From Candidatus Omnitrophota bacterium (GTDB lineage Bacteria; Omnitrophota; Gorgyraeia; Duberdicusellales; 4484-171): 56,430 nucleotides of DNA. The position numbers and the translations under genes were made by a program. Shown here one piece after another: positions 23,406 to 42,005 of the stretch. The stretch is from assembly GCA_023134705.1 (NCBI GenBank), contig JAGLUN010000011.1, forward strand, positions 1 to 56,430, read 5' to 3'. A model generated the notes under the pieces. The model searched no databases and was not told the DNA's origin. It saw only the letters and a list, made by a program, of their open reading frames with translations. Position 1 is the first letter of the stretch. Every line of letters begins with the position of its first letter.

Positions 23406-23703
23406 TGGTTATATTTACTTTATGCTTTCTCTAAGAGACCTCTTCTTTTTCTTTAAGATTCCAACCATATTTTTCCAGTATACTGCTTGGCTTCTTCTAA
23501 ATCTGAAAAAAAAGGATTTTGTGAATTAACTACCTTGCGCCAAAAGCGCAGGACATGCAATATCTTTTCTACCAAACCCGCAATTGTACTTCTTGCAGTA
23601 ACCTTTGTGTAGGTTAACCATCAGCGCCTATGTTACTTTGAAAACCTTTCTCTCTCCATAAGGACACCCTCGGTAAGACCACAGCCACAGGGAATAATCA
23701 AGT

Positions 23704-25527
23704 TTAATAAAAAGAAAGAGTTCCTTCTTTTTTCGCCTTTATGAGCGCTCGTTTATAAAGATAGAGGCTCAAAGGAAATAAAATCAAAAAGAACAAAAGA
23801 AGGATTTTGATATAATAAAATATCTCCAAAAATCCGGGCGATGAAAACAAGCACAATCTTATTCCTTTAAGGGCATAAGTCAAAGGAATCAGATAAGAAA
23901 TTAATTTTAAAAGAAAAGGTAAAATTTTAACAGGATAATACACTCCTCCCAAAAGGCCCATTAGATTACCCATAAAGAAATCAATAGGGTCACCTCTCTT
24001 AAAAATCATTATAAAGGACGAAGAAATAATTCCTATAGAAGAAAAAACCCCGACAGTCAATAAAAATATAATCACTACCCAGAGCAAATTAAACAAATTG
24101 AAATAAAACTTTACCCCTAAAAATAAACCCACTGTTAGATACACAAAAAACCTGAAAGAAGAAAGGAGAAAAAAATAGCTGTTGGAAGAAAACAGATATT
24201 CAAGTATCGATATAGGAGAGATTAAGATTTGTTCGATTATACCCAAAACCTGGGCCTTGCGAAGGCTCAAAGAAAAACCCCCTAAAGAGGTATTAATGAA
24301 TCCCAAAAAAGCCAATCCAACTAATACAAAGGAAAAATAATTTTCTGAGGCAAAATCAAAACTTATATCATTTTTATAAAAAAGTTTTGAGATGAAATAA
24401 AAACTTAGAGAAGAAAATAATACCCCGAAAATATCTAAAGTAAAAGAAAGTTTGTAGTTTTTTTCTATTTTAAAATCCTTTTTGAAAAATAAAAGATATA
24501 AGGAAAAAAGGCGTTTCGTTTTTCGATATAAGAATGTGAAGCTCCACCGCCTCATAGCGGTGGCTTCTGTTTTTTCTTTCCCTTTAGCACTGTTAAATTC
24601 GTTCAAGAGAATATCCGATTTCTCTTCCCCCTGCTTATTCTTGAATTCTATATTATTCCAGACAAATTCTTTTTTCAAGTCTAAGCTTTCGATATTATCT
24701 TTTAAAATATCGCGGCTTCTGATTTCATCCAAATTATTAAATCTAACCTCCTGCCTTCCCTCGCGGGGATCTTTCAATGTAACAACATAGGAATAATTAA
24801 AGAATTTCTTTTTAAACTCTTTTGCGTTCCCTCTCCAAACAATCTTTCCTTCATCGAGGATTAGAATGCTTTCGCAAATACTTTCTATTTCCTCCAAGTG
24901 ATGGCTAACCCATAGAATTGTAAGATTGAACTTTTCTTTTATATCTTTGATATAATTCAAAAATTTTTGCTGGTTAACAATATCTAAATTTACCGTAGGC
25001 TCATCTAAAAACAAAATATCCGGTTTATGAAGTAAGGCCCTTGCTAAATTTAACTTTTGCTTCATTCCGCCGGATAATGAGTCAAATCTCTTAAAAAGCG
25101 TTTCTTTTAAATCCAAAACCGCGTCTATCTCGTCTATTCTTTGTTTTACCTCTTTAAAAGATAAATCATATAACCTTCCAAAAAATATCAAGTTATCGAA
25201 ACCGGTTAACCGCCAGTAAAAACTTCTCTTATTATTTAAAACTAAACCTGTCTTTTTAAGATTTAAAAAGTTGGATTTCTTATCAATTAGGACTATACCT
25301 TTATCCTGGATAATTATATTACAGATTATTTTTAAAAGAGTGGTTTTCCCTGCCCCATTTTTTCCAAAAATTCCTAAAATTTCTCCCTTTCTCACGGAAA
25401 TATTTATATCTTTTAAGACAGTTTGCTTAAATTCATCCTTTATTTTGCCGGGAAGGCAATAACTTAGCTTTTTATAAAAAGGAACGGGTTTTAAAAAATA
25501 TTTAGTGAGATTATTTATTACTAACAT
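23704..25527 (-). CDS. Fused ABC transporter: N-terminal ATPase + C-terminal ABC-2-like permease
   Basis: GIFGKNGAGKTTLLK (Walker A), LSGGMKQKLNLARAL (signature), LFLDEPTVNLD (Walker B). A hydrophobic multi-helix domain begins around aa 330. Confidence 0.85.
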   Translation of the reverse strand: MLVINNLTKYFLKPVPFYKKLSYCLPGKIKDEFKQTVLKDINISVRKGEILGIFGKNGAGKTTLLKIICNIIIQDKGIVLIDKKSNFLNLKKTGLVLNNKRSFYWRLTGFDNLIFFGRLYDLSFKEVKQRIDEIDAVLDLKETLFKRFDSLSGGMKQKLNLARALLHKPDILFLDEPTVNLDIVNQQKFLNYIKDIKEKFNLTILWVSHHLEEIESICESILILDEGKIVWRGNAKEFKKKFFNYSYVVTLKDPREGRQEVRFNNLDEIRSRDILKDNIESLDLKKEFVWNNIEFKNKQGEEKSDILLNEFNSAKGKEKTEATAMRRWSFTFLYRKTKRLFSLYLLFFKKDFKIEKNYKLSFTLDIFGVLFSSLSFYFISKLFYKNDISFDFASENYFSFVLVGLAFLGFINTSLGGFSLSLRKAQVLGIIEQILISPISILEYLFSSNSYFFLLSSFRFFVYLTVGLFLGVKFYFNLFNLLWVVIIFLLTVGVFSSIGIISSSFIMIFKRGDPIDFFMGNLMGLLGGVYYPVKILPFLLKLISYLIPLTYALKGIRLCLFSSPGFLEIFYYIKILLLFFLILFPLSLYLYKRALIKAKKEGTLSFY

Positions 25528-25619
25528 AGTTTACAAAATAAGGTTCGCATAGAATTAAACATAATTACCATCTCTTTCCCCTTCTTTTCTTTTAGGCCGC
25601 TAAGTTTAAGTTGCTAATA

Positions 25620-26478: not shown

Positions 26479-28236
26479 TTAACCTGCTTTTTGTTTCGCC
26501 TGCCCCGAGAACAAATGAAAAAATTCTTTATTATTATTGACTAAATTTAGCGCATTATCTATTATTATTTCACCTCTATTTGCGAAAAAATAGACCGATT
26601 CCGCGCACATAACCGTAGATAGGCGGTGAGATACGACAATCAAAGTCATTCTTTTATTATATAACTTCGTATTTACCAATATTTCTTCTTCGCTAGATGA
26701 ATCCATTGACGACATAGCCTCATCAAGAATAAGAATCTTTGGTTTTCTGAGCAATGCCCTGGCAATAGTAATTTTTTGTTTTTGGCCTTCGGAAATTTTA
26801 CAGGCATTCTCGCCGATTAAAGTATTATATCTATTTGGTAAATCGTTAACAAATTTATCTATGGTGCAAATCTTAGCAATTTCTGTTATCTCTTCTATGC
26901 CGGCATCGGCTTTGCCATACCTTATATTATTTTCTATAGTATCATTCCATAAAAACGGCTCTTGTAAAGCTATTCCAATTTGCCCCCTTAAGGAACTAAA
27001 CTTTATCTCTTTTATATTGCATCCATCGATTATAATATCTCCTGACCAGGGGTCATATAATCTCAAGAGCAGATTTAATATTGTTGTTTTGCCGCATCCT
27101 GAAGGCCCGGCCAGGGCAATATGAGAACCGCCGTCTATGTTAAAATCGATAGCGGATAATACAGGCTCTCCCTGTTTATATCCAAAACTAACATCTCTGA
27201 ATACTATCCCGCCTTTTTTGAATATTGCGCTCCTGGCATTTTTTTTCTCCACTATTTTGGGGCGTTGAGCCAGGATTTGTTCTACGCGCCGGCAAGACAC
27301 CAATCCCAAGGCTATATTTTGAAAGAATCCGGCAAAACTACTCTGCAAACCGATTAACTGGCCTATATAAAGCATTATTGCCGTTAAACTGCCCAAGGTC
27401 ATTTGCCCTTTTATCACCTGATAACCTCCATAAAAGGAAATTAACCCGATAACTACCTTGTTAACCGCACTCCCGGCAAAACCGCTTATAACCTCTAATC
27501 TTGTATTCTTGAGGCTCATTCTTATATTAGCTATTTTTCTCCTTAAATAATCCCTTGTCTCAGCCCCCTCCTTGGCAAATGCCTTAACCAATTGGATGTG
27601 GGAAAAAACCTCATTTAGCCGCTTAAAGATATCTTCGGAATTCCTGATTAAATCTTCCCAGACTCTTCTCATCCTTTTGGTAAAATAATAAGGCGGCAGA
27701 TATAGAAGCGGAGCAAGGCAAAGAGAAAAAACAGCCATTTGCCAGTTAAGGCGCAGGACAATAATCAGAATAAACAATAGCTTGGGAAAGGTAGCAATAA
27801 CCTGAGGCGGGGTTGTGGTTATAAAATCAGCAACTCTATCTATATCATAACTGCTCCTATAAAGATGCTCCCCCGTAGATTTATTCTGAAAGTAATTCAG
27901 GTCAAGTTTTTCTAAATGCTTGAAAACCCGCTTATTCAAATCAAAGTTCACCTTAATCTTTATCTGCCTATCCAGATAATTCTTCAGCCCGCTCACCAAC
28001 CCACTTAAGACAAAGATAACTCCTCCGATTAAAGCCAGAATGATAAAAACCCTTAAATTCTTATTGCCAAAGGCCCTGTCTATAACCAACTTGGTAAGAT
28101 AGGGATTCACCAGACCCAAAAGAACCCCTATCCCGCTTAAGCCGACTATTACCCCCTCCTTTTTCCAGTAAGACAGAAGATGCTTAGTAAATTTCAGGAA
28201 TAGCTTAAACTGAGTTTTGTCTAATATATTCTTCAT
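26479..28236 (-). CDS. ABC exporter, fused transmembrane + ATPase (MsbA/bacteriocin-exporter type, no peptidase domain)
   Basis: 585 aa. The N-terminal six-helix TMD is followed by GPSGCGKTT (Walker A), ISEGQKQKITIARAL (signature-like) and ILILDEAMSSMD (Walker B). Confidence 0.85.
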   Translation of the reverse strand: MKNILDKTQFKLFLKFTKHLLSYWKKEGVIVGLSGIGVLLGLVNPYLTKLVIDRAFGNKNLRVFIILALIGGVIFVLSGLVSGLKNYLDRQIKIKVNFDLNKRVFKHLEKLDLNYFQNKSTGEHLYRSSYDIDRVADFITTTPPQVIATFPKLLFILIIVLRLNWQMAVFSLCLAPLLYLPPYYFTKRMRRVWEDLIRNSEDIFKRLNEVFSHIQLVKAFAKEGAETRDYLRRKIANIRMSLKNTRLEVISGFAGSAVNKVVIGLISFYGGYQVIKGQMTLGSLTAIMLYIGQLIGLQSSFAGFFQNIALGLVSCRRVEQILAQRPKIVEKKNARSAIFKKGGIVFRDVSFGYKQGEPVLSAIDFNIDGGSHIALAGPSGCGKTTILNLLLRLYDPWSGDIIIDGCNIKEIKFSSLRGQIGIALQEPFLWNDTIENNIRYGKADAGIEEITEIAKICTIDKFVNDLPNRYNTLIGENACKISEGQKQKITIARALLRKPKILILDEAMSSMDSSSEEEILVNTKLYNKRMTLIVVSHRLSTVMCAESVYFFANRGEIIIDNALNLVNNNKEFFHLFSGQAKQKAG

Positions 28237-28314
28237 TGTTAAATTGTTTCAGCCAAAGGTTGATCCGCTTGGCGGGCCTCTGGCGGAAAATTGCTGAATG
28301 CCACATTGTTACAT

Positions 28315-28716
28315 TCAAACTGTTTCGCAATTAAGGCGAAACAGTTTGTGATTCTTTTTTTTAACAAGCCTATAAAAATAGAATGTTTTAAATCCTGCCA
28401 GATCCATTCCTTGATTTGTTCTTAAAAGTTTAGTTTTTTGAGGATGCAATTGGAGTTTAAGGCGTTCCAATAAGAAATCCTTTATTCTTTTATGAGAATT
28501 GGCTATTTTTTTATAAGATCTGTCCAAAACAACAAAATCGTCACAATACCTTAGATAAAATTTCTTCCTTAAGTTATGTTTTACAAAATAGTCCAGTTCA
28601 TTCAGATAAATATTGGCAAAGAGCTGTGAAACAGAACTACCCACGGCTATACCCTTACTTCCGGAACAAAAAGAAAGCATCTTTTCTATCAGCTTTATTA
28701 CCCTTCCATATTCCAA
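28315..28716 (-). pseudogene. N-terminally truncated reverse transcriptase, DGR-like (motifs 4-7 and thumb only)
   Basis: GIAVGSSVSQLFANIYLNELDYFVK has SQ where group II RTs have SP. RYCDDFVVL is the YxDD box, and LQLHPQKTKL follows. The frame is closed 4 codons upstream of the TTG start, and only ~37 nt separate it from the P1 stop, so motifs 1-3 are absent. Confidence 0.6.
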
Positions 28717-28753
28717 ATAACCAAATTATCAAATCTCCAAAAAACAAAAGGGC

Positions 28754-29017
28754 TTAGGAGGCTGTTAGGTTTGGTAGCGGGTTCCAAGAGGGAAGAATTT
28801 TGGCTGGGCCATACCCATTCAGCACCTTCGTCCCATGCTGATCATAACCACAAATACGTCCGAGCTCCGGGCTCGTACCCACCCAGTACCTCCATGCTAC
28901 GTGTGATTGGCTTTGGAACACCCTGCCCGTGCTCCAGCAGTTACACGATAACACCGCCTGCTCAGGGTTGAGTTTTACCCGCGTAATCTTGGGTCTGAAT
29001 TTTGGTTTTCTTCCCAT
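28754..29017 (-). CDS. Precursor peptide P1 (87 aa): conserved leader, hypervariable core
   Basis: SD GGGAGGT lies 8 nt before ATG 29017 (the track ORF starts 9 codons earlier). Translation: MGRKPKFRPKITRVKLNPEQAVLSCNCWSTGRVF...NLTAS. The leader is shared with P2 and P3. Confidence 0.7.
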   Translation of the reverse strand: MGRKPKFRPKITRVKLNPEQAVLSCNCWSTGRVFQSQSHVAWRYWVGTSPELGRICGYDQHGTKVLNGYGPAKILPSWNPLPNLTAS

Positions 29018-29037
29018 AATTTGATACCTCCCTTCTT

Positions 29038-29135
29038 GTATCACGTATCAAGTATCAAGTATCAAGTATCAAGTATCAGGTATCACGTTTTACCTGTTAC
29101 TTGTTACCTGCGGCGTGTTGCGCATTCGCGCTTAC
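29038..29135. repeat. Heptanucleotide tandem-repeat array (GTATCAN x7, then degenerate NTGTTAC-type heptamers)
   Basis: Read directly: gtatcac, gtatcaa x4, gtatcag, gtatcac, gttttac, ctgttac, ttgttac, ctgcggc, gtgttgc, gcattcg, cgcttac. The array spans the HprK-like stop and encodes its last ~11 codons. Confidence 0.9.
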
Positions 29136-30062
29136 TCTTCTCACAAAATCAATAACTTTTCTATCATTCACAAACCCCAGGCTATAACAGGGCACAGTTT
29201 TAACCAAATCCTGGCAAAAGGAAATTATATTTTCTAAACATCCTTTATCCCAGAAGGTAGGAAAGAGCGCCGGATAAAGTAGATTGAATGCCCTCTTTCG
29301 CGAAATCTGTCTTATTGTATTTTTAGGCGAATGATGGATAAAAAATAATTTTTCAAGCCGCGCCGATTCGATATGCGACTCTAAATAATCACTAAAATCT
29401 CCATGCCATGGCGCGCCGTAGATAAAGAATTTTTTTTTAAGTTTTCGCACAATAATGCGGTCATCATTCAAAACCATTGCTTTGCTGTGTTTATGCCAGA
29501 GCCTTGCCGTAGTGCTTTTACCTGCCCCGGATTTACCGGCAAAAAGTAATCCCTTGCCGTTTAAATCCTTCACTCCGATAGAATGAGTAAAAATACCTTG
29601 TTTATTCAAAGCAAAATAATTTATCAATAGAACCTGCAAAAAGTCATAGATGATATCCGAAGTATTCCATACCTTTCCTTTTTGTTTTTTTGGCAGAAGA
29701 TAAGCGGTTACCCGGTCAAAAGCCTTGTTTACCAGCATCGCTTGTTTTTTATCCTCAAGCGGGCTTTTGTAAACATAGCTCTTGCCTCTCTTAAGCAAGC
29801 GCCAGTTCTCACTTCCATCCTGAAAGTGATAGGTAATAAATACCGGCTTTGTTTTTTTGATTTCGGGTAATTTATCAACTATCTCTACATTAACTAAAAT
29901 ATGCGGAGTTTGCCTGCCTTTATAAAAAAAATTATCAAATCGTTCGCCCGCCTGCGCTCTTTCTTCTTCTTTAGTAAACTGCTCAAGAGGAAAGCGGCTT
30001 TTCATCTGAATAATTGTATCAGCAATCCTTAATTTAACTACCACATTATTACCTTGCTTCAT
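29097..30062 (-). CDS. HPr-kinase-related P-loop kinase-like protein (locus II)
   Basis: LLFAGKSGAGKSTTARL P-loop, LNDDRIIVRK and GAPWHGDF. ATG 30062 (MKQGNNVVVKL) is preceded by AAGGAG and matches the start of the pseudogene copy. The track start at 30167 is likely too long. Confidence 0.75.
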   Translation of the reverse strand: MKQGNNVVVKLRIADTIIQMKSRFPLEQFTKEEERAQAGERFDNFFYKGRQTPHILVNVEIVDKLPEIKKTKPVFITYHFQDGSENWRLLKRGKSYVYKSPLEDKKQAMLVNKAFDRVTAYLLPKKQKGKVWNTSDIIYDFLQVLLINYFALNKQGIFTHSIGVKDLNGKGLLFAGKSGAGKSTTARLWHKHSKAMVLNDDRIIVRKLKKKFFIYGAPWHGDFSDYLESHIESARLEKLFFIHHSPKNTIRQISRKRAFNLLYPALFPTFWDKGCLENIISFCQDLVKTVPCYSLGFVNDRKVIDFVRRVSANAQHAAGNK

Positions 30063-30196
30063 TGCTTCTCCTTTTAAATTAGTTGCCTTCGGCAATAATT
30101 TATCATATGAAAACCTGCGGTTTTCAAACTTTCCCCTAAAATCCTTAAGATTGAAATTCCTAAACATGAACTTAGTGCGCCTAACGGCGCGGGCTT

Positions 30197-30373
30197 TTAG
30201 TTAGGAGAACATTTCATTCGATCATTACATTCGGGGCAAGTGAACGTAGGACTTTCACCTTCTTTACACCCCTGAGAATGAAAATAGGCATCAAAGACGA
30301 TATCTTCGACTTCTGTTTCGTATTCACATGAAACACATTTGTACCTGTACCATTGACTCTTCCCGCCAAACAT
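30197..30373 (-). CDS. Small zinc-ribbon-like protein (58 aa, below the ORF-track cutoff)
   Basis: AAGAGGA lies 5 nt before the ATG. Translation: MFGGKSQWYRYKCVSCEYETEVEDIVFDAYFHSQGCKEGESPTFTCPECNDRMKCSPN, with two CxxC pairs. Confidence 0.5.
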   Translation of the reverse strand: MFGGKSQWYRYKCVSCEYETEVEDIVFDAYFHSQGCKEGESPTFTCPECNDRMKCSPN

Positions 30374-30597
30374 TTTCGTCCTCTTTTTTGCTCAAAGGAG
30401 GCGGTAGCCCTTTTTCTTTTTTGCCTGGGTCAGAAATCCGTAGATATCGAACATCGTAGGCGTTTTTCTCTCACTTTACGCCTTAGGTTTCAAGCCTCAC
30501 GCTTTTGGCGCGCAGCCTGAAGCGTACACGACGTATTCACGGGTATTCGCGTCTAACCCAATCAACAAATTCCCAAATCTCCAAAAAACAAAAGGGT

Positions 30598-30852
30598 TTA
30601 GGAGGATGACTGGCTACCACTGAGGTTATAACCGCGGTAATGCCTGTATGGTCCAATCCATTTTAGCTGTAGCTTACCCATGCACTGTGCCTGGGGTCCA
30701 GGCGTGGTTTGTCGTAGCCATCCAGTATCGCGACTGCTGCCTAGCCAGATTGGTTTCGTACCTCCTTGGTAACAGTCGCAGGTTAACACCGCCTGCTCAG
30801 GGTTGAGTTTTACCCGCGTAATCTTGGGCTTGAATTTTGGTTTTCTTCCCAT
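30598..30852 (-). CDS. Precursor peptide P2 (84 aa): same leader as P1, unrelated core
   Basis: SD GGGAGGT precedes ATG 30852. Translation: MGRKPKFKPKITRVKLNPEQAVLTCDCYQGGTKPIW...GSQSSS. Confidence 0.7.
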   Translation of the reverse strand: MGRKPKFKPKITRVKLNPEQAVLTCDCYQGGTKPIWLGSSRDTGWLRQTTPGPQAQCMGKLQLKWIGPYRHYRGYNLSGSQSSS

Positions 30853-30872
30853 AATTTGATACCTCCCTTCTT

Positions 30873-30956
30873 GTATCAAGTATCAAGTATCAGGTATCAG
30901 GTATCAGGTTTTACCTGTTACGTGTTACCTGCGACGTGTTGCTCATTCGCGCTTAC
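30873..30956. repeat. Heptanucleotide tandem-repeat array, second copy with different unit counts
   Basis: gtatcaa x2, gtatcag x3, gttttac, ctgttac, gtgttac, ctgcgac, gtgttgc, tcattcg, cgcttac. Confidence 0.9.
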
Positions 30957-31246
30957 TCTTCTCACAAAATCAATAACTTTTCTATCATTCACAAACCCCA
31001 AGCTATAACAGGGCACAGTTTTAACCAAATCCTGGCAAAAGGAAATTATATTTTCTAAACACCCCTTATCCCAGAAGGTAGGAAAAAGCGCCGGATAAAG
31101 TAGATTGAATGCCCTCTTTCGCAAAATCTTTCTTACTGTATTTTTTCTTCTTCTTTAGTAAACTGCTCAAGAGGAAAGCGGCTTTTCATCTGGATAATTA
31201 TGTCTGCAATCCTTAGTTTAATTGTTACATTGTTACATTGTTTCAT
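30918..31246 (-). pseudogene. HPr-kinase-related gene remnant with a large internal deletion
   Basis: 31140-31246 matches 29955-30062 (MKQCNNVTIKLRIADIIIQMKSRFPLEQFTKEEE). 30918-31140 matches 29097-29320 (RKRAFNLLYPALFPTFWDKGCLENIISF...). The junction is out of frame and the P-loop region is missing. Confidence 0.8.
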
Positions 31247-31313
31247 TGTTTCTTCTTTTTTAGCCATTTAACAATTTAACCATTTAGCAGTTTGCCAGTT
31301 TAACGGTTTTTTT
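31221..31313. repeat. Octanucleotide tandem-repeat arrays (CATTGTTA-type, then CCATTTAA/CAGTTTAA-type)
   Basis: cattgtta cattgtta cattgttt cattgttt ... ccatttaa caatttaa ccatttag cagtttgc cagtttaa. The second array encodes the VKLANC tail of rSAM A. Confidence 0.85.
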
Positions 31314-32363
31314 CGCCAACTCACAAAACCACTCAACAGGCTCTTCTAAGCTTCCCGTTTCCAACAATGCCTTGCCTGGACAATTATAGCATAAATCCCT
31401 TATTGAACAATTCTTACATTTAGAATCGGTAATAAATCTTCTGCTCCTTACCCAGTTTAAAATACTTTTTTGTGCTTCTTCGATACTTTTTTCAAATAAA
31501 TTTATTTTAGGCCCTCTGATACAATTACAAGGTATAACATTCCCATAAGGGTCAATATGAATCCCGTCTCCGCCGCCAATAGCACAAGGAAATAACCTGC
31601 TGTTCGGTGTTCGGTTTTCGGTTATCGGTTTTTGGGGTTCAGTATTCAGGGATAACTGACAATCGTTATCTAAGGGTTGTTTATTTCCATCTAGATTTAA
31701 AATCTCCTCGGGAGAGATTCTTAAACTACAGGGCCTTAAATCCCCATTAAGCCGGGCATGAAGGAACGCGCTTGGCCTAAAACTTAACCCTAAATTTTCC
31801 ACAAACTCCTTTATTTTCGGCAATTCCTCTAAATTATCCTTGATCACCTGTGTTTTTATCTTTAAAGGTAATTTATTCTGTGTTATCAGCTTTATGCCAT
31901 CCATTGCTTTTTCAAAAGAACCCTTTACCCGGGATATCTCTTCATAGGTTTCCTTCGTAACTGCATTAAGGGTAATCTCGATGACAAAAGGAGGTTGCTT
32001 TTTCAGATACCCGGCAATCTCTTCAGTCATTGAACAGCCGTTAGTAAATATTGTTATTATAAACCCTTTATCTTTAGCATAAGAGTAAAACTCCAAAAAA
32101 TCCGGCCGCGTTAAAGGGTCTCCTCCTGTCCAACAAAGCCAGATTACCCCTGCATTATATATCTTATCAAGTAGGAATTTCACCTGGCCGGTACTTAGCT
32201 CACCTTTTATGTATTCTTGTTTATTATAACAATCTGAATAGCAATGCCTGCAATGAAGGCCGCATTTAAAAGTTAACTCAAACTGGCATACATTCGGCTT
32301 TTTGATTCGCCAGTTCTTCTTGTGAGTTTTGAGGCTAAAAGTTCTGTATTGAAGTTCTTTCAT
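31284..32363 (-). CDS. Radical SAM/SPASM maturase A (locus II)
   Basis: ELTFKCGLHCRHCY, WTGGDPL, and SPASM CAIGGGDGIHIDPYGNVIPC...KCKNCSIRDLCYNCPG. The start is set at ATG 32363 (MKELQY); the track GTG at 32399 lies in a repeat array. Confidence 0.85.
   Translation of the reverse strand: MKELQYRTFSLKTHKKNWRIKKPNVCQFELTFKCGLHCRHCYSDCYNKQEYIKGELSTGQVKFLLDKIYNAGVIWLCWTGGDPLTRPDFLEFYSYAKDKGFIITIFTNGCSMTEEIAGYLKKQPPFVIEITLNAVTKETYEEISRVKGSFEKAMDGIKLITQNKLPLKIKTQVIKDNLEELPKIKEFVENLGLSFRPSAFLHARLNGDLRPCSLRISPEEILNLDGNKQPLDNDCQLSLNTEPQKPITENRTPNSRLFPCAIGGGDGIHIDPYGNVIPCNCIRGPKINLFEKSIEEAQKSILNWVRSRRFITDSKCKNCSIRDLCYNCPGKALLETGSLEEPVEWFCELAKKTVKLANC
31601..31636. repeat. Intragenic heptamer-repeat element inside rSAM A
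   Basis: tgttcgg tgttcgg ttttcgg ttatcgg tttttgg, translated in frame as ...PITENRTPNSR.... Confidence 0.75.
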
Positions 32364-32434
32364 GATAATACGTAGCACGTCACAGGCATCAGGTATCACG
32401 CTTCAAGCTTCGCGCTTTTGACGTGCAGCGTGCA

Positions 32435-32467
32435 GCCATTTAACAGTCTAACAGTTTAACAATTGCC
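32435..32467. repeat. Octamer repeat array at the rSAM B 3' end
   Basis: gccatttaacagtctaacagtttaacaattgcc encodes the ...QLLNC tail and stop. Confidence 0.75.
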
Positions 32468-33560
32468 TTCTCTCTTCCGCCCTCCCGCGGCTTTCAGGTA
32501 CACAGGAAGTAAAAGTCCTGCTATGAAGCCAAGCTTTTGCCGGACACCACTTACAATAGGGCTCAAACTCACACCTATCGCACTGGTAATTTTCATCCGG
32601 CTTAATATTCTTCACTAAGTCTTTTAACTTTTCCCACGCGCTTTTCAGGCTCGGTGTTCGGTGTTCGTTTTTTTCCGATAACCGATAACCGATAACCGAT
32701 AACCCGCTTTCAGCTTTGTCTTCTGTCAGTATTTTATACTTAGGATAATCAATCATAAGACACATCTTTAACTCTCCAAAGGGAGTGATTGCAGCTTGAG
32801 TTTTGCCTACTCCGCATTTGAATAGGTTTTCGGTTTTGGGTGTTCGGTTTTCGATTTCTTCCGATAACCGACAATCGATAACCGATAACCGACTCTGTCC
32901 TCTGTTATTTGCCATCCGGCCTCTGTATTTATACGGCTCTTTTGACCCATTTAACCGGGGCGAAAGCGTATCATCCAAACGGTGCAGGGCGCCTAAGGAA
33001 ACAGCAAAATCCTGTATCTCTTTTATTTCAGATTCATTTTCTTTTAAAACGCAGGTCTTGAATCCCAATTCAACTCTTCTTTTATACAATAAATCAATAG
33101 CTTTAAAGATCCTCTTGTGCGAATTAGGCGCCCGGGTAATTTTCTCAAGAGCCTTTTTGCTCATCGCCGGAATAGTAATATCTACCTTGTTTGGCCTCAA
33201 AGTAGCTAATTCATCAGCTATTTCTTCATTTATCAACGAACCGTTGGTATAAATAATAACCTCAAATCCCTTTTTCTTAGCATAGCGGAATATCTCCATT
33301 ATGTCTTTCCTTAGAAATGGCTCACCGCCGGTAAAGCCTAAATAAAAACAGCCAATATCAGCAAGCTGTCCTAAAATAGAAAAAACCTCTTTTGTCTTAA
33401 GCTCTCCTGCTTTTCTTCGGTAACTTAAGGGCACATAACAATGCTTACAATAAAAATTGCACTGGTAGGTTAATTCAAACATCACCCGCAAAGGAAAGCC
33501 TCTATTTTTAGCGGATTTGTGTATTCGCTGCCAAAAATTATGATAAGACTGAGTTTTCAT
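32448..33560 (-). CDS. Radical SAM/SPASM maturase B (locus II)
   Basis: ELTYQCNFYCKHCY, FTGGEPF, and SPASM CGVGKTQAAITPFGELKMC...QCDRCEFEPYCKWCPA. It contains two in-frame repeat-element insertions. Confidence 0.85.
   Translation of the reverse strand: MKTQSYHNFWQRIHKSAKNRGFPLRVMFELTYQCNFYCKHCYVPLSYRRKAGELKTKEVFSILGQLADIGCFYLGFTGGEPFLRKDIMEIFRYAKKKGFEVIIYTNGSLINEEIADELATLRPNKVDITIPAMSKKALEKITRAPNSHKRIFKAIDLLYKRRVELGFKTCVLKENESEIKEIQDFAVSLGALHRLDDTLSPRLNGSKEPYKYRGRMANNRGQSRLSVIDCRLSEEIENRTPKTENLFKCGVGKTQAAITPFGELKMCLMIDYPKYKILTEDKAESGLSVIGYRLSEKNEHRTPSLKSAWEKLKDLVKNIKPDENYQCDRCEFEPYCKWCPAKAWLHSRTFTSCVPESRGRAEERRQLLNC
32651..32705. repeat. Intragenic imperfect-hairpin heptamer element 1 in rSAM B
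   Basis: (tcggtgt)x2-tcg-ttttttt-(ccgataa)x4-cc. It is translated in frame as GLSVIGYRLSEKNEHRTPS. Confidence 0.85.
32826..32892. repeat. Intragenic imperfect-hairpin heptamer element 2 in rSAM B
   Basis: gttttcggttttgggtgttcggttttcg-atttctt-ccgataaccgacaatcgataaccgataaccg. It is translated in frame as SRLSVIDCRLSEEIENRTPKTEN. Confidence 0.85.
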
Positions 33561-33578
33561 TGCTAAATTGCTACGTTG

Positions 33579-33953
33579 CTATATTGATAATCTCTCATTA
33601 GTGAATTTAATAAGTGAATTAATTTCCTTGGGTAATTTCTTCAATTCTTCAGAGATATGTTGATATTCCTTTTCTTTTAATAAACCTCTTTTATTTGCTT
33701 TCTCAGTCCAATCAAAAGATTCCTTTATTGAACCATAACTATAACGATAGAAATTAACCTTATCTTTCTTAAAATATCTACCGAAACCCTCAGCAATATT
33801 AGCCGAAATAGAATCAACGGCTTTAACTAACTGTTTACCTACTGTATCTTTTACAAAATAATTCCACTTATTTACGATATTCCAAACATAGTTGGATAAA
33901 TCAAAGGCAATCCTATAAGCACTTATGTCTTCCAGTTCCAAATATTTCTTCAT
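33579..33953 (-). CDS. Four-helix-bundle protein (23S rRNA intervening-sequence protein family; the same family as DGR Avd)
   Basis: 124 aa. YRIAFDLSNYVWNIV, QLVKAVDSISANIAEGFGR, FYRYSYGSIKE and a closing helix. This is the pattern I recognise for the four-helix-bundle family. Confidence 0.65.
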   Translation of the reverse strand: MKKYLELEDISAYRIAFDLSNYVWNIVNKWNYFVKDTVGKQLVKAVDSISANIAEGFGRYFKKDKVNFYRYSYGSIKESFDWTEKANKRGLLKEKEYQHISEELKKLPKEINSLIKFTNERLSI

Positions 33954-33956
33954 CTC

Positions 33957-34001
33957 AACAGTTTAACAGTTTAGCGATTTAACAGTTTAACAATTTAACT
34001 C
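33957..34001. repeat. Octamer tandem-repeat array (AACAGTTT x5, degenerate)
   Basis: aacagttt aacagttt agcgattt aacagttt aacaattt aac. It covers the rSAM C stop and its ...VKLLNC tail. Confidence 0.9.
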
Positions 34002-35127
34002 CCATCTGTTCCGCTGTTGCTTTAGCCAACTCGCAAAAATAAGGAACCGGCGCTTCTTCATCACCAGTCTCCAAAAAGGCTCTTGCCGGGCAGTGATAGC
34101 AGATCGGCCTTAAAGAACAGTCTTTACATTTTGAGCCAGTCTTAAATTTCTCATTTAAAAGTTGAGGGAATACGTTGTAGAAACCTTCTCTGAAAGGCTG
34201 CTTTTTTAAATCCACGCTAAACTTCTCAGAAAATTGGCAAAATTTAAGCCTACCGTAGGGATTGATAAAAAACTGCGTAAACCAGGCATTACAACGATAA
34301 AGAAACTCTTTGTCCCTTCCTAAATCAGGAAACTTGCCGCAAAGACCTCTTTCATATTCCTGCCAAATCTCAGGGTCTGACTTCTTAGATTCTAATAATT
34401 CTCCTGGAGAAAGCCTGTAATCGCAGGGGGTTGTATCGCCATTAAGCCGTGCGTATATCATCGGGTCGTATTTGAATCTCCATGTTTTATTGCCCTTGCC
34501 CCGTGAGATAGGCGTAGCCTTCATCTCATGGGGCTTGCCTAAAAGCTTATCGGTAAAGGCTTTTATTCTGACAATTTCATCTTTGTTTTGCTTTAAGCAG
34601 TTTGATTTTAAAATTAAAGGGAGTTTTCTAACGGTGAGCTCCTTTATTACAGACATAACCCTTTTAAAAGAACCTTTTACCTGAGTTATTCTCTCATAAA
34701 CAGGCTCAGTTATGCCGTTGAGGGTAATTTCTATAGATTCCGGCGGAGATTTCTCAAGATAATCTACAATCTTTCCTGTAAGAAGTAAGCCATTGGTAAA
34801 TATGGTTATGACAAAACCTTTTTTTTTGGCATAAGAATAAATCTCTAAAAAATCATCTCTTAATAAAGGCTCTCCGCCGGTAAAACAAAGCCATAGGCAG
34901 CCCTGCTTATGAATTTCATCAAGAATTTCCTCCCACTCCCGGGTTGTCAATTCTTGATTCCCGGTATTCGGCGTGCAGCGTGAAGCGTATTCCTCAATTC
35001 CCTTACAATAACAATGAACGCAATTAAGATTACAGCGGTAGGTAAGCTCAACCTGTCCTTTCCAGGGATAATGTTCCTTTTTGCCATATAATTTGTTATA
35101 AAAACGCCCTGAACTAATGTTTTTCAT
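33979..35127 (-). CDS. Radical SAM/SPASM maturase C (locus II)
   Basis: ELTYRCNLNCVHCY, FTGGEPL, and SPASM CNAWFTQFFINPYGRLKFC...KCKDCSLRPICYHCPA. An in-frame repeat insertion lies at 34961-34993 (YASRCTPNTGNQ). Confidence 0.85.
   Translation of the reverse strand: MKNISSGRFYNKLYGKKEHYPWKGQVELTYRCNLNCVHCYCKGIEEYASRCTPNTGNQELTTREWEEILDEIHKQGCLWLCFTGGEPLLRDDFLEIYSYAKKKGFVITIFTNGLLLTGKIVDYLEKSPPESIEITLNGITEPVYERITQVKGSFKRVMSVIKELTVRKLPLILKSNCLKQNKDEIVRIKAFTDKLLGKPHEMKATPISRGKGNKTWRFKYDPMIYARLNGDTTPCDYRLSPGELLESKKSDPEIWQEYERGLCGKFPDLGRDKEFLYRCNAWFTQFFINPYGRLKFCQFSEKFSVDLKKQPFREGFYNVFPQLLNEKFKTGSKCKDCSLRPICYHCPARAFLETGDEEAPVPYFCELAKATAEQMGVKLLNC
34961..34993. repeat. Intragenic heptamer-type repeat inside rSAM C
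   Basis: ccggtattcggcgtgcagcgtgaagcgtattcc. Paralogs A and B lack the corresponding ~12 residues. Confidence 0.65.
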
Positions 35128-35176
35128 TGTTCGTTTTGCTCGTTATGCCCATTGTTAAATTGTTATATTGCTTCAT

Positions 35177-35205
35177 TGCTAAATTGCCACACAAACAATT
35201 TAGCA
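35177..35205 (-). promoter_or_regulatory. Intercistronic stem-loop between P3 and rSAM C
   Basis: tgctaaattg (35177-35186) pairs perfectly with caatttagca (35196-35205), with a 9-nt loop. No clear U-run follows on the minus strand. Confidence 0.45.
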
Positions 35206-35310
35206 GTTTAACAGTAGTTAAATCCAAAGGGGCTCAGGAGGAAACAGTTTCTTGTCTGAAAAAATCAGTAGTAATAATATTTTTATTCCTGCACACTGTC
35301 TCATCATAGC

Positions 35311-35427
35311 CTATATAAGCCTCCCCTGTACCCAGCCTGTGTCATAGCATGAACAGAACAACACCGCCTGCTTAGGGTTGAGTCGGATCCATGTTATCCT
35401 TGGTCTGAATTTTGGTTTTCTTCCCAT
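35311..35427 (-). CDS. Precursor paralog P3 (38 aa; probably decayed)
   Basis: SD GGAGGTG lies 7 nt before ATG 35427. Translation: MGRKPKFRPRITWIRLNPKQAVLFCSCYDTGWVQGRLI, then TAG. The frame stays open beyond the TAG. The conserved 3' block is mutated (cct cct gag instead of tcc tcc taa), so the terminal Ser and stop are lost. Confidence 0.45.
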   Translation of the reverse strand: MGRKPKFRPRITWIRLNPKQAVLFCSCYDTGWVQGRLI

Positions 35428-35546
35428 AATTTAGCACCTCCGCTCTTTTGCCTAGCGCGTATTACCTATTGCAACGTGTAGCATGCTGCGTGCAGCAGTT
35501 TATTTTACCCTTTTCCTTATTAAACTGCCTCATTGATAAATTGCCC

Positions 35547-36217: not shown

Positions 36218-36275
36218 AGTATCTGCGAACTTTAACTCCTCAAAAATATGCTGATATTCTTCTTACTTTACCCGC

Positions 36276-36626: not shown

Positions 36627-36932
36627 CTAAACAACTGCCTTTATCTCCTTTAAATCCTTCAGGAAATCCTGCATCTCTTTATCTACCTCTCCGGAATTAG
36701 TATCAAACTCCTTTAAAACCTTGCTTTTAATCTCCCCAAGGCTTCTTTTACCATTAATCAATTCCCAGATCCTTGAGGCAACCTTGTTTAAGGTATAGAT
36801 ACAGTTTATCTCCTCGGAAGTTTTATAAATCGGCATAAGAATAGTCTCATTATCAATTGTTCGTGCCACCATATCCTTGTTTTTGCGTAAAACCATAGTT
36901 TCTCTCATGGGGTTATTCCTCCTTCTTACCAA
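36627..36932 (-). CDS. PqqD-family protein (locus II)
   Basis: IYTLNKVASRIWELINGKRSLGEIKSKVLKEFD...EVDKEMQDFLKDLKE. Confidence 0.75.
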   Translation of the reverse strand: MVRRRNNPMRETMVLRKNKDMVARTIDNETILMPIYKTSEEINCIYTLNKVASRIWELINGKRSLGEIKSKVLKEFDTNSGEVDKEMQDFLKDLKEIKAVV

Positions 36933-36979
36933 GCACTGTCAAAACTATTTACCCTTTATGTGCTTAAAAACTCTAAATC

Positions 36980-38515
36980 CTAAGTGTTTAGGATTTTTCC
37001 CCTGTGTGATATATTGTTATATTGCTGTATTGTTAAACAATTTAGCAATCTATCCAGGCCCGCCATCTTCTTCTCAATCTTCTGTAAACCTTTAAGCTTC
37101 CTGCCTTTTTTCAAACTTAATCTCTTGGCTCTTTCAAAATCCTTTTTAAACTCCTTGTATCTTATAGAAACGTATTTAGTTATATCATCTTTTGCCTTTA
37201 GATGGCAGCAAATTTTTAGAAGCCTTTTAATTACATCTATATTACTTAGCCCCAGTCTCATTGCATCCTGATAAAAAACTGCTGCCTTTTCAAAATCTTT
37301 CTCCCTCTCATAAATCTGCCCTAAAAGATAACGGTTCTTGGGCTGCATTGGCTCAAAGGGTTGATAACTAAGAAATAACTTCTTAGCTTTCTTAAACTTC
37401 TTCAATCCTAACTCTGCCTGTGCCAATCCCAATAAAGATTGTTTCAATTCTGTCTTTAGTTTTAAGGCATAGGAAAAATGCCTTTTTGCCTTATAAAAAT
37501 TCCTTTTTTCTAAAGCGATATTACCCAGACCAATAAAAGGATAAGGATTTTCAGGGTCAACCCGGGTAACCTTCAAGAATTCCCTTTTGGCTTTGGAAAA
37601 TCTGCGAATATTTAAATAAAGAGGCCCATAATTATTATCCGCTGCCCGATAGGAGGGATCAAGCCTTATTGCTTTTTGGTAATATTCCTTTTTGCCGGTT
37701 GATGCAAAGCGCTCAAAAAAGACAGAGGCAATAAACTTTTGCCCATAGCGTTCTTTAAAATGTTTTGGCGACAAGCGGTAAGCTAATTCATCCCCCAAGA
37801 TTTTATAGCGCATTGGCGTCCAGCCGCCATTTACAGAATAGGCAATGGTGGTCCAAACCGGCTTGAGCTCCTTCTTGCTAAGCAAATCCTTTACCAATCT
37901 ATCAGGCCTAATCCAACGTTTCCTTTTACCTATTTTAGCCGTATTACTTGCGTTTAAAAGGCTGTCCACAATTAGGAAGTCAGTATCAATATCTAACAAG
38001 ACCTTTTGTTTTAGAATCGGCAGTTTTTCTAATGTGCATATAACAAATTTTCTTCCCAAGAGTTTAGTTGAGACTATCCCATCTTGAAACGTATGACGTG
38101 TAACGTGTAACGTGTGACCTAATTGGCAAGGGTCATGTCTTGAGAAACTCTTGAGCATACCTTTTATAATTTTGAGCGACTTCTTAAATTCCTTTAATCT
38201 TCCTGGAATAACCCAGTAAAGATCCTTGACGATACCCTCGCGCATTGCCGGATAGATATAATTTCCGATATTAGTCTGCTTATCAAAATCTTTCTGATAT
38301 CTCTGATACAAAAGAGACTTTTCCAATTCCCGCTTCAGTTGATTTAACGTCCTTGCTTCATTCATTATCTGCTCTTTCGGCTTTGCCGGATGAAAGCCAA
38401 AATCAATATGAGCATCGATATGGACGAGATCCACGCCTTTAAAACCTTTCTCCCTCCAGATTTTTAGCGCCTCATGATGATCTTCAATAAGGGATATTTT
38501 GTTTGTCATCTTCAC
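36980..38515 (-). CDS. UPF0489-like N-terminal domain fused to TPR repeats
   Basis: IEDHHEALKIWREKG...LVHIDAHIDF at the N-terminus. The C-terminal half has several TPR-like units (YYQKAIRLDPSY..., GLGNIALEKRNFYKAKRHF...). It contains an in-frame heptamer repeat at 38089-38119. Confidence 0.6.
   Translation of the reverse strand: MKMTNKISLIEDHHEALKIWREKGFKGVDLVHIDAHIDFGFHPAKPKEQIMNEARTLNQLKRELEKSLLYQRYQKDFDKQTNIGNYIYPAMREGIVKDLYWVIPGRLKEFKKSLKIIKGMLKSFSRHDPCQLGHTLHVTRHTFQDGIVSTKLLGRKFVICTLEKLPILKQKVLLDIDTDFLIVDSLLNASNTAKIGKRKRWIRPDRLVKDLLSKKELKPVWTTIAYSVNGGWTPMRYKILGDELAYRLSPKHFKERYGQKFIASVFFERFASTGKKEYYQKAIRLDPSYRAADNNYGPLYLNIRRFSKAKREFLKVTRVDPENPYPFIGLGNIALEKRNFYKAKRHFSYALKLKTELKQSLLGLAQAELGLKKFKKAKKLFLSYQPFEPMQPKNRYLLGQIYEREKDFEKAAVFYQDAMRLGLSNIDVIKRLLKICCHLKAKDDITKYVSIRYKEFKKDFERAKRLSLKKGRKLKGLQKIEKKMAGLDRLLNCLTIQQYNNISHRGKILNT
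38089..38119. repeat. Intragenic heptamer repeat (ACGTGTA x3-4)
   Basis: acgtatg acgtgta acgtgta acgtgtg acc, translated in frame as GHTLHVTRHTF. Confidence 0.8.
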
Positions 38516-39665: not shown

Positions 39666-40175
39666 TCATGTTTTATGTAACGCCCTCTTAATAATTCTAC
39701 TCCCTATCCCGAACAAAGGACCAACTACTACAATAAGCTGATTAACAAAATTGCTCCGTCTCCCTGCAAGGCTTATAATATGGCCGTTTCTCAAAACACC
39801 TGTAACTTTACCCACAAGCAATTCCTCTGCCACTGGCTCACCTGAACTCAAATTATTATCCCCGCGGGCATAAAGCAAACACCCTCCTTTATTCTTGATT
39901 ATCTTTACCAGTCGGTGACAGACTATCTGATTCTCTGCCCGGTAGAGAATAATATCGCCAACCCTTAAGCTTCCTGCGGCAACCTTTTTAACCACTACCC
40001 TCTCTCCTGTCTTGAGAAATGGCCACATACTAAAACCAACAGCTTTAATAAGGATTAAATCCCCATATTCCTGCTTTAAGTGAATATCGTTATCTCTCTG
40101 CATCGCCTTCAATTTTAAATATATGAATTGCCGCAAGGCCGTTGGGATAATAAATGGTTTTAATCGCTGTTGCAT
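39666..40175 (-). CDS. S24/S26-family serine peptidase-like protein, paralog 2
   Basis: VGFSMWPFL, VGDIILY, CHRLV and RGDNN boxes, as in 14138-14629. Confidence 0.6.
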   Translation of the reverse strand: MQQRLKPFIIPTALRQFIYLKLKAMQRDNDIHLKQEYGDLILIKAVGFSMWPFLKTGERVVVKKVAAGSLRVGDIILYRAENQIVCHRLVKIIKNKGGCLLYARGDNNLSSGEPVAEELLVGKVTGVLRNGHIISLAGRRSNFVNQLIVVVGPLFGIGSRIIKRALHKT

Positions 40176-40712: not shown

Positions 40713-42005
40713 TTAATAACGGGCTTTTTTTGCATTGGTTACTCCGCAAGTTATTGCCTTATAGGGAATATAAAACAGGCGGTTCTTATATAAGAAATCG
40801 GTTTTTTTATCATAAGACGAAAGCCCGTAATACTTGGCAAACTGCTCTTTGGGTATATTGAAGATATATTCTGTCGGCTCCCAAAAGCTGTCATATAAAA
40901 GAAAATGGCTCTTTAGATATAATTCTTTCCCGTCCGCCTTTTTTGCCGGCAAAAAAGTATTCCTTTGTATAAACCGCCGAATTAATCTTTGTTTATAGCG
41001 CGGGATACCTAAGCCATGCCATACCTCTGTGGGCATTTTCTGTTCTAATAAAATTTCTGCCTGGGTTAAGATAAAAAATAATGCCGCGCGCATCTTGCCT
41101 TTTTTTGCTTGTTTCAAAACATAATCCCAGTCAAAACCAACAGTATATTTATTTAATAATACTACCGTATCGTAAGCATTTTTCAGGCAGAGTGTGCGGC
41201 CAAACCGGCGATTATGCAAGGCTAAACTAAAAAGAGTATCTTCCGGAGAAAGCAGATTTATTTTTCTTCCATCCGCATTAATTTCTCTTATTCTTTCCCA
41301 AAGCCCCGGCAGTATATTGCGGTTTTTCCTTTTAAAGTCAAGGTTCCAATGCAGTTCGATAAAAGGTGCTTTTTCATCTTTCTTTTTCTTATAGAAGGTA
41401 AAGTGAATTTGTTTTTCTCTCCAGTATTCTTGTTTTAAACCATAGAGTTCTTTTCTATATCCTAAATCGCCGAATATTGTTTCCGCTTTTTGAAGGTCTT
41501 CTTCCTTAACCAAAAGGTCGATGTCTGTCATTGGCCTGAGATAATTATTTGCGTATAAATCTTCAAGAAGAGCTACCCCCTTTATAGGTAAAAGGATAAC
41601 CCCCGCTTGCTCAAAAAGATCATATATTCGTAAGAATTCCTGCCAAAGTTTCTGGCAGCGGACTAAAGCGCAATAATAATTATTTTTTAAAAAAGTTTCT
41701 AAATCATGAGGCAAAAATGAATTGAAATCCTTCAAAGCAGAATAGCTAAAAGGGGTTAAATCATGATAAATAATAAAACTTTTAAACTTTCCCCAATCAA
41801 TAGAATAGGAAGTTAGTAAATCATTGATCTCCTGTTTTTTATTGCCAACTATATGACCAACAATAAATTTAATTAGATTTATTTCAGGAATTATCTCTGA
41901 CATATCGAAATATCCATAACCCGTCGAATTCTTTAATAAACTCCAGCCTGAAATTCGTATCCAGCCAAGTTTTAACGGACTGGGAATTATCATCCAATCT
42001 TCCAT
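40713..42005 (-). CDS. NTP_transf_5-like nucleotidyltransferase-family protein, paralog 2
   Basis: LPIKGVALLEDLYANNYLRPMTDIDLLVKEEDLQKAETIFGDLGY and ELHWNLD. The real start is probably MSEIIPE (41903). Confidence 0.7.
   Translation of the reverse strand: MEDWMIIPSPLKLGWIRISGWSLLKNSTGYGYFDMSEIIPEINLIKFIVGHIVGNKKQEINDLLTSYSIDWGKFKSFIIYHDLTPFSYSALKDFNSFLPHDLETFLKNNYYCALVRCQKLWQEFLRIYDLFEQAGVILLPIKGVALLEDLYANNYLRPMTDIDLLVKEEDLQKAETIFGDLGYRKELYGLKQEYWREKQIHFTFYKKKKDEKAPFIELHWNLDFKRKNRNILPGLWERIREINADGRKINLLSPEDTLFSLALHNRRFGRTLCLKNAYDTVVLLNKYTVGFDWDYVLKQAKKGKMRAALFFILTQAEILLEQKMPTEVWHGLGIPRYKQRLIRRFIQRNTFLPAKKADGKELYLKSHFLLYDSFWEPTEYIFNIPKEQFAKYYGLSSYDKKTDFLYKNRLFYIPYKAITCGVTNAKKARY

Follow-up and report, generated by a model that had tools for sequence, protein, structure and literature searches.

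Among peptides that are made on the ribosome and modified after translation (RiPPs), the prochlorosins and the Nif11/NHLP-type peptides have numerous paralogous precursors in each genome, in which a conserved leader meets a hypervariable core at a sharp boundary (PMC2887384; PMC10783134), and in the lasso peptides paeninodin and pseudomycoidin the C-terminal Ser is phosphorylated and glycosylated, the phosphorylation of the precursor being the work of HprK homologues (PMC8498205; PMC6993621). The locus analysed here lies on contig JAGLUN010000011.1 (assembly GCA_023134705.1) of a Candidatus Omnitrophota bacterium, in a stretch of 56,430 nt that is referred to as the window, and it contains a peptide gene cluster, all of whose genes discussed below are on the minus strand, with two precursor genes, P1 and P2, and a decayed third, P3 (Table 1). 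The first-pass annotation, made from the letters alone, had described P1 and P2 as tandem precursor cassettes with near-identical leaders and 3' flanks around unrelated cores. Our analysis predicts that they are paralogous precursors of a large, so far undescribed Omnitrophota RiPP family, the cores of which appear to be hypervariable on a fixed scaffold, not unrelated. The explanation that we regard as probable for the locus as a whole is that of a RiPP precursor family with fixed flanks and a core under diversifying selection, in which, in the case of the window, a recombination tract lies over older cores.

By behaviour, the family belongs with the prochlorosins and Nif11/NHLP peptides as a natural combinatorial library of RiPPs, with many precursors per genome, one enzyme set, a conserved leader and hypervariable cores, and some Omnitrophota metagenome-assembled genomes (MAGs) have at least 24 dispersed copies, as in MAG JAQVMQ01, where they lie mostly away from the maturases. 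It differs from those systems in its unrelated leader, in a predicted radical SAM (rSAM) rather than lanthionine or azole chemistry, and in having a fixed Cys scaffold, a fixed C-terminal Ser and a conserved non-coding 3' motif. By enzyme set, the window cluster appears nearest to the SynChlorMet (SCM) cassette (TIGR04248-04251; PF27840), with which it shares the co-occurrence of an HprK-like ScmC-type protein, a PqqD-type protein and paralogous rSAM/SPASM enzymes, and its kinase-like protein has the precomputed Pfam domain ScmC (PF27840), which is also found on nearly all of the homologues listed. The likeness stops short of identity, in that the cluster misses all four NCBIfam equivalog cut-offs by a wide margin (in bits, ScmC 25.5 vs 125, ScmD 22.8 vs 100, ScmE 73-79 vs 400 and ScmF 58-78 vs 400), combines three rSAM enzymes with an arginase-like TPR protein, an NTP_transf_5 protein and a signal-peptidase-like gene, and has its own precursor family, for which scans of the window proteins found no Pfam or NCBIfam model. 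The layout itself is what would be expected for RiPPs; what is new is the family, its size, the selection signal confined to the core, the conserved 3' motif and a neighbour of the type found in diversity-generating retroelements (DGRs).

A profile search with P1 to P3 returned at least 229 homologous proteins and an exhaustive search at least 861 family representatives (distinct peptides at 50% identity), which, where named, are nearly all from Omnitrophota and all "hypothetical", and which thus define a large unannotated RiPP precursor family in a poorly known phylum. A literature search found no paper with the leader motif, none tying Omnitrophota to such a RiPP and none tying DGRs to RiPPs. 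The family plan consists of the leader RKPKF[RK]PxITRVKLNPEQAVL, followed by xCxC[YWF]xxG, a variable part in which a third Cys comes some 25-30 residues later, and a C-terminal Ser; the leader, C25, C27, the third Cys and the terminal Ser are invariant or near-invariant, with the terminal Ser column at least 90% conserved in 120 sequences. A partner of at least 50% identity exists for 20 of the 224 distinct cores, and the other 204, P1 and P2 among them, have none. Hundreds of leader homologues elsewhere run into open frames of 55-100 codons that end in Ser, as would be expected if, as the first-pass annotation claimed, these are translated precursor genes, and the layout of leader, variable core and conserved 3' end is likewise supported. 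Related loci are cited below by the letter L and a number, and those from species-representative genomes number 76. A second subfamily has the sequence AVLSCC and shorter cores; it is massively expanded and dispersed (L049-L075, MAG JAQVMQ01 and relatives; L061), carries a different conserved 3' element, which is 63 nt long and includes a small hairpin, and in L061 blastn places six or seven leader copies in 2.6 kb.

In the window, P1 and P2 were found with the coordinates and sequences originally given. Their Shine-Dalgarno (SD) sequence with spacer (20/20 nt) and 23-codon leader (67/69 nt) together are identical at 87/89 nt, both mismatches falling in codon 8 (AGA/AAG, R/K), and the same codon is used at all 22 identical leader residues, compared with a same-codon fraction in leaders between loci of 0.48 +/- 0.13 and a maximum of 0.89 (1618 pairs). 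At the other end, the stop codon and 3' flank, from 'cctcctaa' to 'gatttg', are identical at 31/32 nt within a block of 43-52 nt at 87-91%, outside of which identity is at the random level. The cores are 54.8% identical in a gapped global alignment vs about 51% for shuffled cores, so that the near-identical ends and the unalignable middle of the original description all hold up, as does the core start C-x-C-[WY]-x-x-G written in different codons. What does not is the word "unrelated", because the cores are divergent homologues, with the CxC...C scaffold and the C-terminal Ser common to P1, P2 and the whole family. At every conserved core codon, P1 and P2 have a different third base (tgt/tgc at C25, tgc/tgt at C27, ggc/ggt at G31 and tgt/tgc at the third Cys). 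In the case of P3, the open reading frame (ORF; 35427-35314) is halted by a stop after 38 codons, and 'tcctcctgagcccctttgg' is retained further downstream; other decayed precursors (L004 2576-2800, L017 ~5500-5730 and L077) similarly keep the ...SS stop and the 3' motif past a premature stop or frameshift.

The G+C content computed for 28761-28960 is 0.55, the same as the earlier hand count, and that of the P2 core is 0.53, in a window of 0.354. Core GC1 and GC2 are high and Ser, Gly, Thr, Cys and Ala abound in the cores of the family, so that the G+C richness of the cores would be due mainly to their amino-acid composition and is a poor sign of foreign origin; GC3 is likewise raised in the window's cores, and this composition does not account for.

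Selection was assessed in three pairs of near-identical strains, each compared at the same locus at the DNA level. In L089/L091, the genes are 98.4-99.8% identical, three intergenic segments are identical at 306/306 nt and the leader at 69/69, while the core matches at 163/174, with nine nonsynonymous and one synonymous changed codons. In L095/L096, the upstream and downstream sequences match at 1454/1457 and 2041/2041, the leader at 93/93 and the core at 206/213, with seven changed codons, and in L093/L094 the corresponding values are 296/300, 94/94, 183/183 and 205/213, with six changed codons; in both pairs all of the changes are nonsynonymous. Pooled over the three pairs, the core has 26 differences in 600 nt vs 4 in 1337 nt of adjacent flank (0-1.3% per pair), 22 changed codons are nonsynonymous and one is synonymous, and the spectrum comprises 17 transitions and nine transversions, with no adenine bias. 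The quiet synonymous sites and the ordinary spectrum argue for strong diversifying selection on the core in these pairs and not for a raised or adenine-directed mutation rate. The core as the target of diversification is therefore borne out in these related loci, where substitutions are confined to it, but the dedicated mutagenic mechanism implied by "targeted diversification" is not, because no template repeat was found, the spectrum is without adenine bias and the adjacent DGR-type reverse transcriptase (RT) is a fragment. A core that gathers almost only amino-acid changes between near-identical strains, beside a leader and flanks that stay fixed, is a clean natural example of core-only selection; it suggests that the peptides act in an arms race or in signalling and that the enzymes accept highly diverse substrates, and such enzymes would serve peptide engineering.

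The mosaic in the window, with flanks 96-100% identical and cores at a near-shuffled level, has to be seen against the duplication in which it lies. The tandem duplication of kinase-like gene, heptamer array and precursor that had been proposed is present, but it extends further upstream than was described: 376 nt at 92.8% (29324-28949 vs 31145-30784) are joined by a further 116 nt at 87.9% (30075-29960 vs 31259-31144), so that, besides the SD and leader, the block comprises the kinase-like gene and a pair of short tandem arrays. The second kinase copy, a pseudogene, is 88-96% identical to the intact one, i.e. 4-12% diverged. Since all four conserved core codons are synonymous-divergent while the flanks are near-identical, the cores would be older than the flanks, which in turn points to recombination or gene conversion ending at the leader/core junction, and a recombination boundary at this junction is, from the sequence, the best reading of the mosaic. 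The earlier suggestion of cassette exchange can thus be kept as far as such a boundary goes, though not for cores that were thought to be unrelated. The proposed origin is that two cores, already old and different, were overlaid by a segmental duplication or gene-conversion tract of recent date, which reaches from the kinase gene through the arrays and the SD into the leader and comes to an end with the homology at the leader/core junction. L010 has leaders identical at 68/69 nt with the upstream sequence unrelated and the core at random level, and L049 has the same leader-only identity. A comparator for such an arrangement is provided by the pilE/pilS cassettes of Neisseria, in which the 5' coding part is constant, a hypervariable part follows and a conserved repeat lies just 3' of the gene, a layout that could provide recombination arms; the precursors differ in that none is a silent cassette, each copy starting with an SD and a start codon of its own.

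An alternative is that the kinase-precursor unit was simply duplicated in tandem and that the core then diverged very fast in place under positive selection, by substitutions, indels and frameshifts and without recombination. With a core substitution density 10-40 times that of the flanks in the related-locus strain pairs, and with flanks 4-12% diverged, the core could have become saturated, and some residual similarity is indeed left: the P1 and P2 cores are weakly similar over 27 nt, although in different frames (z = 3.65), within-locus core pairs retain similarity (z > 3) in 14% of cases vs 2% between loci, and L016 has an intermediate paralogue pair with a leader at 97% and a core at 65%. 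What makes this alternative unlikely is that the acceleration in the strain pairs is nonsynonymous, with a single synonymous change in 23 changed codons, whereas the four Cys/Gly codons of P1 and P2 differ synonymously next to a pseudogene just 4-12% diverged, and that in L010 the block of identity is the leader alone. A second alternative, an assembly chimera in which two strains or loci were joined at the repeated leader block, could appeal to the metagenomic origin of the assembly, to the single contig that carries these proteins and to a scaffolding artefact seen elsewhere in L058. The longest exact run common to both copies is 60 nt, which makes misassembly unlikely, and since the copies are also 4-12% different, with an internal deletion and unique flanks each, and multi-precursor loci are common in independent assemblies, we give this alternative hardly any weight.

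The 3' flank, which might have been taken as a mere relic of the duplication, is a non-coding motif conserved across many genomes. With at most one mismatch allowed, 12 copies of TAAGCCCTTTTG stand directly behind precursor stops and seven lie elsewhere (2 x 1.07 Mb), two or three of the latter behind decayed precursors. Metagenome contigs of other organisms contain the 3' motif as well, and TAAGCCCTTTTGTTTTTGG with a (ATTTGGNN)n array stands right after the precursor stop in many unrelated genomes (e.g. L017 9812+, L023, L029, L080 and L081), the octamer array usually lying downstream of the motif. Read-through coding of the 3' flank was rejected, since indels of 1 nt and 5 nt between stop and motif in other genomes indicate that the motif is non-coding. 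An intrinsic terminator was also rejected, with no stable hairpin (z 0.75 and -0.73) and no match there in a terminator scan. No Rfam family reached its gathering score anywhere in the window, and in 28200-31400 a single chance-level match had E < 1. At the other boundary of the core, the synonymous choice in leader codons 14-23 is biased relative to neighbouring genes (CTC, AAC, CAG, GCG and GTG; 82 low-GC loci), for example with Leu16 = CTC in 49% vs a background of 6%, and an exact search with the leader-end 27-mer for variants of the window strain's own precursors matched five metagenome contigs, all from other organisms. A possible explanation of this bias is nucleotide-level constraint at the leader/core junction.

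The RT fragment raises the further possibility that a retroelement drives the diversification, with a DGR-type RT rewriting or mobilizing the core at the 3' end of the gene in the manner of a DGR variable region. DGRs are defined by pairs of template repeat and variable repeat (TR/VR) with adenine-facing mismatches, and their targets nearly always have C-type lectin folds (PMC8144416). The precursors resemble this arrangement in that a variable part at the 3' end of the gene is followed by conserved sequence, and a DGR-clade RT and Avd are adjacent in three loci (the window, L058 and L082), with the avd-RT cassette 3' of the precursor and intact in L058 only. In the case of the window, the RT fragment directly 3' of P1 is 133 aa long and truncated at both ends, and thus no intact RT; it contains the motif VGSSVSQ, which we take to be typical of DGR RTs, and its best solved relative is 8ub7, a 328-aa RT that is presumably that of the Bordetella phage DGR. 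The element is split, with its 5' head after P2 and the RT relic after P1. In L058 (10724-12224), an intact avd-like ORF and an RT (E 8e-47 vs 8ub7) lie 0.6-1 kb downstream of a precursor, and in L082 (1282-2505) a truncated bAvd (PF22296) and a frameshifted RT directly follow precursor P0026. Unlike at a DGR, no template repeat was found for either core by blastn of the 56-kb window against itself, or by adenine-tolerant diagonal scans of three cores against both window strands, or by blastn or adenine-tolerant scans in L058 and L082, and no canonical DGR target (Asn-rich tracts, GGSW-type motifs) was found near the intact RT of L058. Core lengths differ, and both alignable core pairs and strain pairs are without adenine bias, with transitions exceeding transversions. 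Among the genome loci, an RT is present in one of 76, three of the four closest RT copies are pseudogenes, and four other RTs at about 50% identity sit away from any precursor, in ordinary contexts with canonical Asn-rich templates. Retroelement-driven diversification is accordingly very improbable; the association of RT and precursor is recorded as such, and the window is not assigned as a DGR target. Scarcely less doubtful is a dedicated DNA-level renewal in which an avd-RT cassette once rewrote or mobilized, or where intact still does, cores between two nucleotide-conserved arms. Its arms, a proposal that we consider just as much of a long shot, would be the leader end (AAA CTC AAC CCT GAR CAG GCG GTG TTG) and the non-coding TAAGCCCTTTTG... 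motif. If true, this would be a first for RiPPs, the diversification being based on a retroelement or on cassettes. Leads are offered by the DGR-type relic next to the precursors, by the short tandem arrays and by the conserved 3' motif.

Table 1. Predicted features of the precursor locus and its gene cluster (window positions).
Feature	Position	Strand	Remarks
P1 precursor gene	28754..29017	-	87 aa; leader 29017-28949 (MGRKPKFRPKITRVKLNPEQAVL); core 28948-28757 (SCNCWSTG...C...TAS)
P2 precursor gene	30598..30852	-	84 aa; leader 30852-30784; core 30783-30601; C-terminus ...SSS
P3 decayed precursor	35224..35427	-	Leader and CSCYDTG; 3' motif relic 35244-35224
P1 stop codon and conserved non-coding 3' motif TAAGCCCTTTTGTTTTTTGG	28705..28756	-	Then octamer array (ATTTGGNN)n
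P2 stop codon, same 3' motif and octamer array	30549..30600	-	
Leader end with biased codons	28949-28978 (P1), 30784-30813 (P2)	-	
DGR-type RT fragment	28315..28716	-	Directly 3' of P1; motifs 4-7 only, VGSSVSQ...YCDD
DGR-type element, 5' non-coding remnant	30380..30565	-	Directly after P2; homologous to L082 1090-1230
Heptamer arrays upstream of P1	29038..29110	-	(TGATACY) x 6.9 + (GTAACAN) x 3
Heptamer arrays upstream of P2	30873..30931	-	Two units fewer than upstream of P1
ScmC/HprK-like P-loop kinase, intact	29097..30062	-	Walker A GKSGAGKST
Second kinase-gene copy	30918..31267	-	Pseudogene; ~635 nt lost internally, including the P-loop
Small zinc-ribbon-like ORF between P2 and kinase gene	30197..30373	-	
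rSAM/SPASM maturase 1	31284..32399	-	
rSAM/SPASM maturase 2	32448..33560	-	
rSAM/SPASM maturase 3	33979..35127	-	Best solved relative SkfB
PqqD-family peptide chaperone (RRE)	36627..36932	-	
UPF0489/FlmR-OhkR-like (peptide-arginase-like) domain fused to TPR repeats	36980..38515	-	
Signal peptidase I-like (S24/S26) protein	39666..40175	-	Candidate leader peptidase
NTP_transf_5 nucleotidyltransferase	40713..42005	-	Paralogue 20031-21275
ABC exporter (transmembrane domain and ATPase)	26479..28236	-	

The genes around the precursors are consistent with a RiPP of the rSAM/SPASM class with a PqqD-type element, in that rSAM/SPASM enzymes, PqqD and an ORF with leader and variable core are all present. 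PF04055 was detected in all three rSAM proteins (E 1e-19 to 1e-27), SPASM being weak in rSAM3, together with many rSAM/SPASM NCBIfam matches that include weak ones to StsB, AlbA and PapB, and the PqqD protein matches PF05402 above the cut-off (E 1e-11). The kinase-like protein has weak NCBIfam matches to HprK-related kinase B, ScmC and HPr kinase, and a local Pfam scan gave AAA_33 and Hpr_kinase_C only, the latter below the cut-off at E 6e-4. With Foldseek, its AlphaFold2 model (pLDDT 84) matched PEP carboxykinase (PEPCK; E 2e-7) and HprK/P (E 1e-5), at TM-scores of just 0.3-0.4; PEP carboxykinase and HPr kinase/phosphatase form one structural superfamily. The same enzyme set recurs around homologous precursors in the 76 loci, with the kinase in 37, PqqD in 45, rSAM in 49, the arginase-like protein in 24, NTP_transf_5 in 20 and the peptidase in 31, and loci with rSAM usually have three each. 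The enzyme set is thus conserved and unusual (three rSAM/SPASM enzymes, a ScmC-type kinase, NTP_transf_5 and an arginase-like enzyme), and orphan "SynChlorMet-like" enzyme sets gain a candidate substrate.

In the proposed pathway, the 23-residue leader would be read by the PqqD-type chaperone and hence by the three rSAM/SPASM maturases, which most likely cross-link the fixed cysteines (CxC and the third Cys) of an otherwise free core. A comparison with sactipeptide and ranthipeptide maturation (SkfB, AlbA, PapB) is invited by the rSAM/SPASM enzymes and the Cys-bearing precursors, and by SkfB as the best solved relative of rSAM3, but the similarity is confined to the radical SAM core, and the window has three maturases and a 60-residue core in which Cys occurs just three or four times. 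By analogy, the ScmC/HprK-like kinase encoded directly upstream is likely to use the near-invariant C-terminal Ser as its phosphate acceptor, and phosphorylation could be followed by the action of NTP_transf_5. Paeninodin and pseudomycoidin clusters likewise have an HprK-family kinase and an "uncharacterised NTP transferase", with precursors ending in Ser (PMC8498205; PMC6993621), although the window cluster is without a lasso cyclase or B protein, and modification of its Ser is an inferred step. The arginase-like domain might convert Arg to Orn, the signal-peptidase-like protein could remove the leader, and ABC transporters would export the peptide. Purifying selection that acts on the protein, and possibly also on the nucleotides, would keep the leader constant, with the 3' motif kept unchanged, as the core is driven apart by strong diversifying selection.

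Several points weigh against this explanation. The selection evidence comes from related loci and not from the window's own population, the 27-nt frame-shifted similarity hints at some shared ancestry of the two cores, and the order of duplication, conversion and core replacement is beyond the resolution of one assembly. On the enzymatic side, the gene set and family knowledge are the source from which cross-links, phosphorylation and the site of leader cleavage are deduced, a sequence profile of the kinase family found nothing significant in the PDB, and the curated NCBIfam cut-offs for ScmC/D/E/F and HprK are missed.

Short tandem arrays accompany the precursors. Arrays with units of 7-9 nt are about five-fold enriched within 150 bp of precursors (17 of 65 arrays vs 5.4% of the sequence), and their unit types are shared with other genomes. 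In the window, the heptamer array and an inverted GGTATCA beside the SD can form hairpins (fold z about -4). The array as a general anti-SD element was rejected, because the arrays of other genomes are not complementary to their SD regions. Nearly all of the cluster's intergenic spacers in window 28700-38700 are made up of such arrays with units of 7-8 nt (AAACTGTT, TTAGCAAT, AATGAAAC, TGGTTAAA...), for example at 31216-31286, 32396-32461, 33559-33590, 33957-33999 and 35151-35215. Heptamer arrays also occur in frame within coding sequence (31601-31640 in rSAM1, 32651-32704 and 32825-32892 in rSAM2, and 38088-38115 in the arginase-like gene), where they encode insertions of the ...ENRTP... / LSVIGYRLSE type in the C-terminal halves of the two rSAM enzymes; the gain or loss of one in-frame unit would shift the reading frame.

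Other genes are interspersed in the cluster. The small zinc-ribbon-like ORF between P2 and the kinase gene has no relative among the 76 related loci. A 23S-rRNA-IVS / four-helix-bundle (Avd-like) gene (33579-33953) lies between AAACTGTT and TTAGCAAT arrays upstream of rSAM3, as if inserted into the standard spacer, where the two arrays adjoin, and it has close homologues in two family loci (L014 1295-1675 and L020 12152-12532). Between the PqqD gene and the decayed P3 lie genes for a GIY-YIG nuclease and a DUF5674 protein as well as one unknown ORF (35547-36614); L082, which is syntenic, has an intact precursor immediately after PqqD. Between the arginase-like and signal-peptidase-like genes there are HEPN/MNT-type (nucleotidyltransferase and HepT-like) toxin-antitoxin genes, judged by eye (38661-39539).

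Two further duplications were observed at a distance from the precursors. Both ends of the ABC transporter gene 23704-25527 have been copied at 98-99% with the middle deleted (44083-44456 vs 23651-23707 and 25235-25556), a pattern of ends kept and middle lost that is like that of the second kinase copy. Finally, a 3.3-kb block is duplicated at 73% on either side of the peptide cluster (20114-23432 vs 40751-44087), and its genes encode NTP_transf_5, a GT-C/PMT_2-like membrane glycosyltransferase and a GT2 polyprenyl-phosphate glycosyltransferase.

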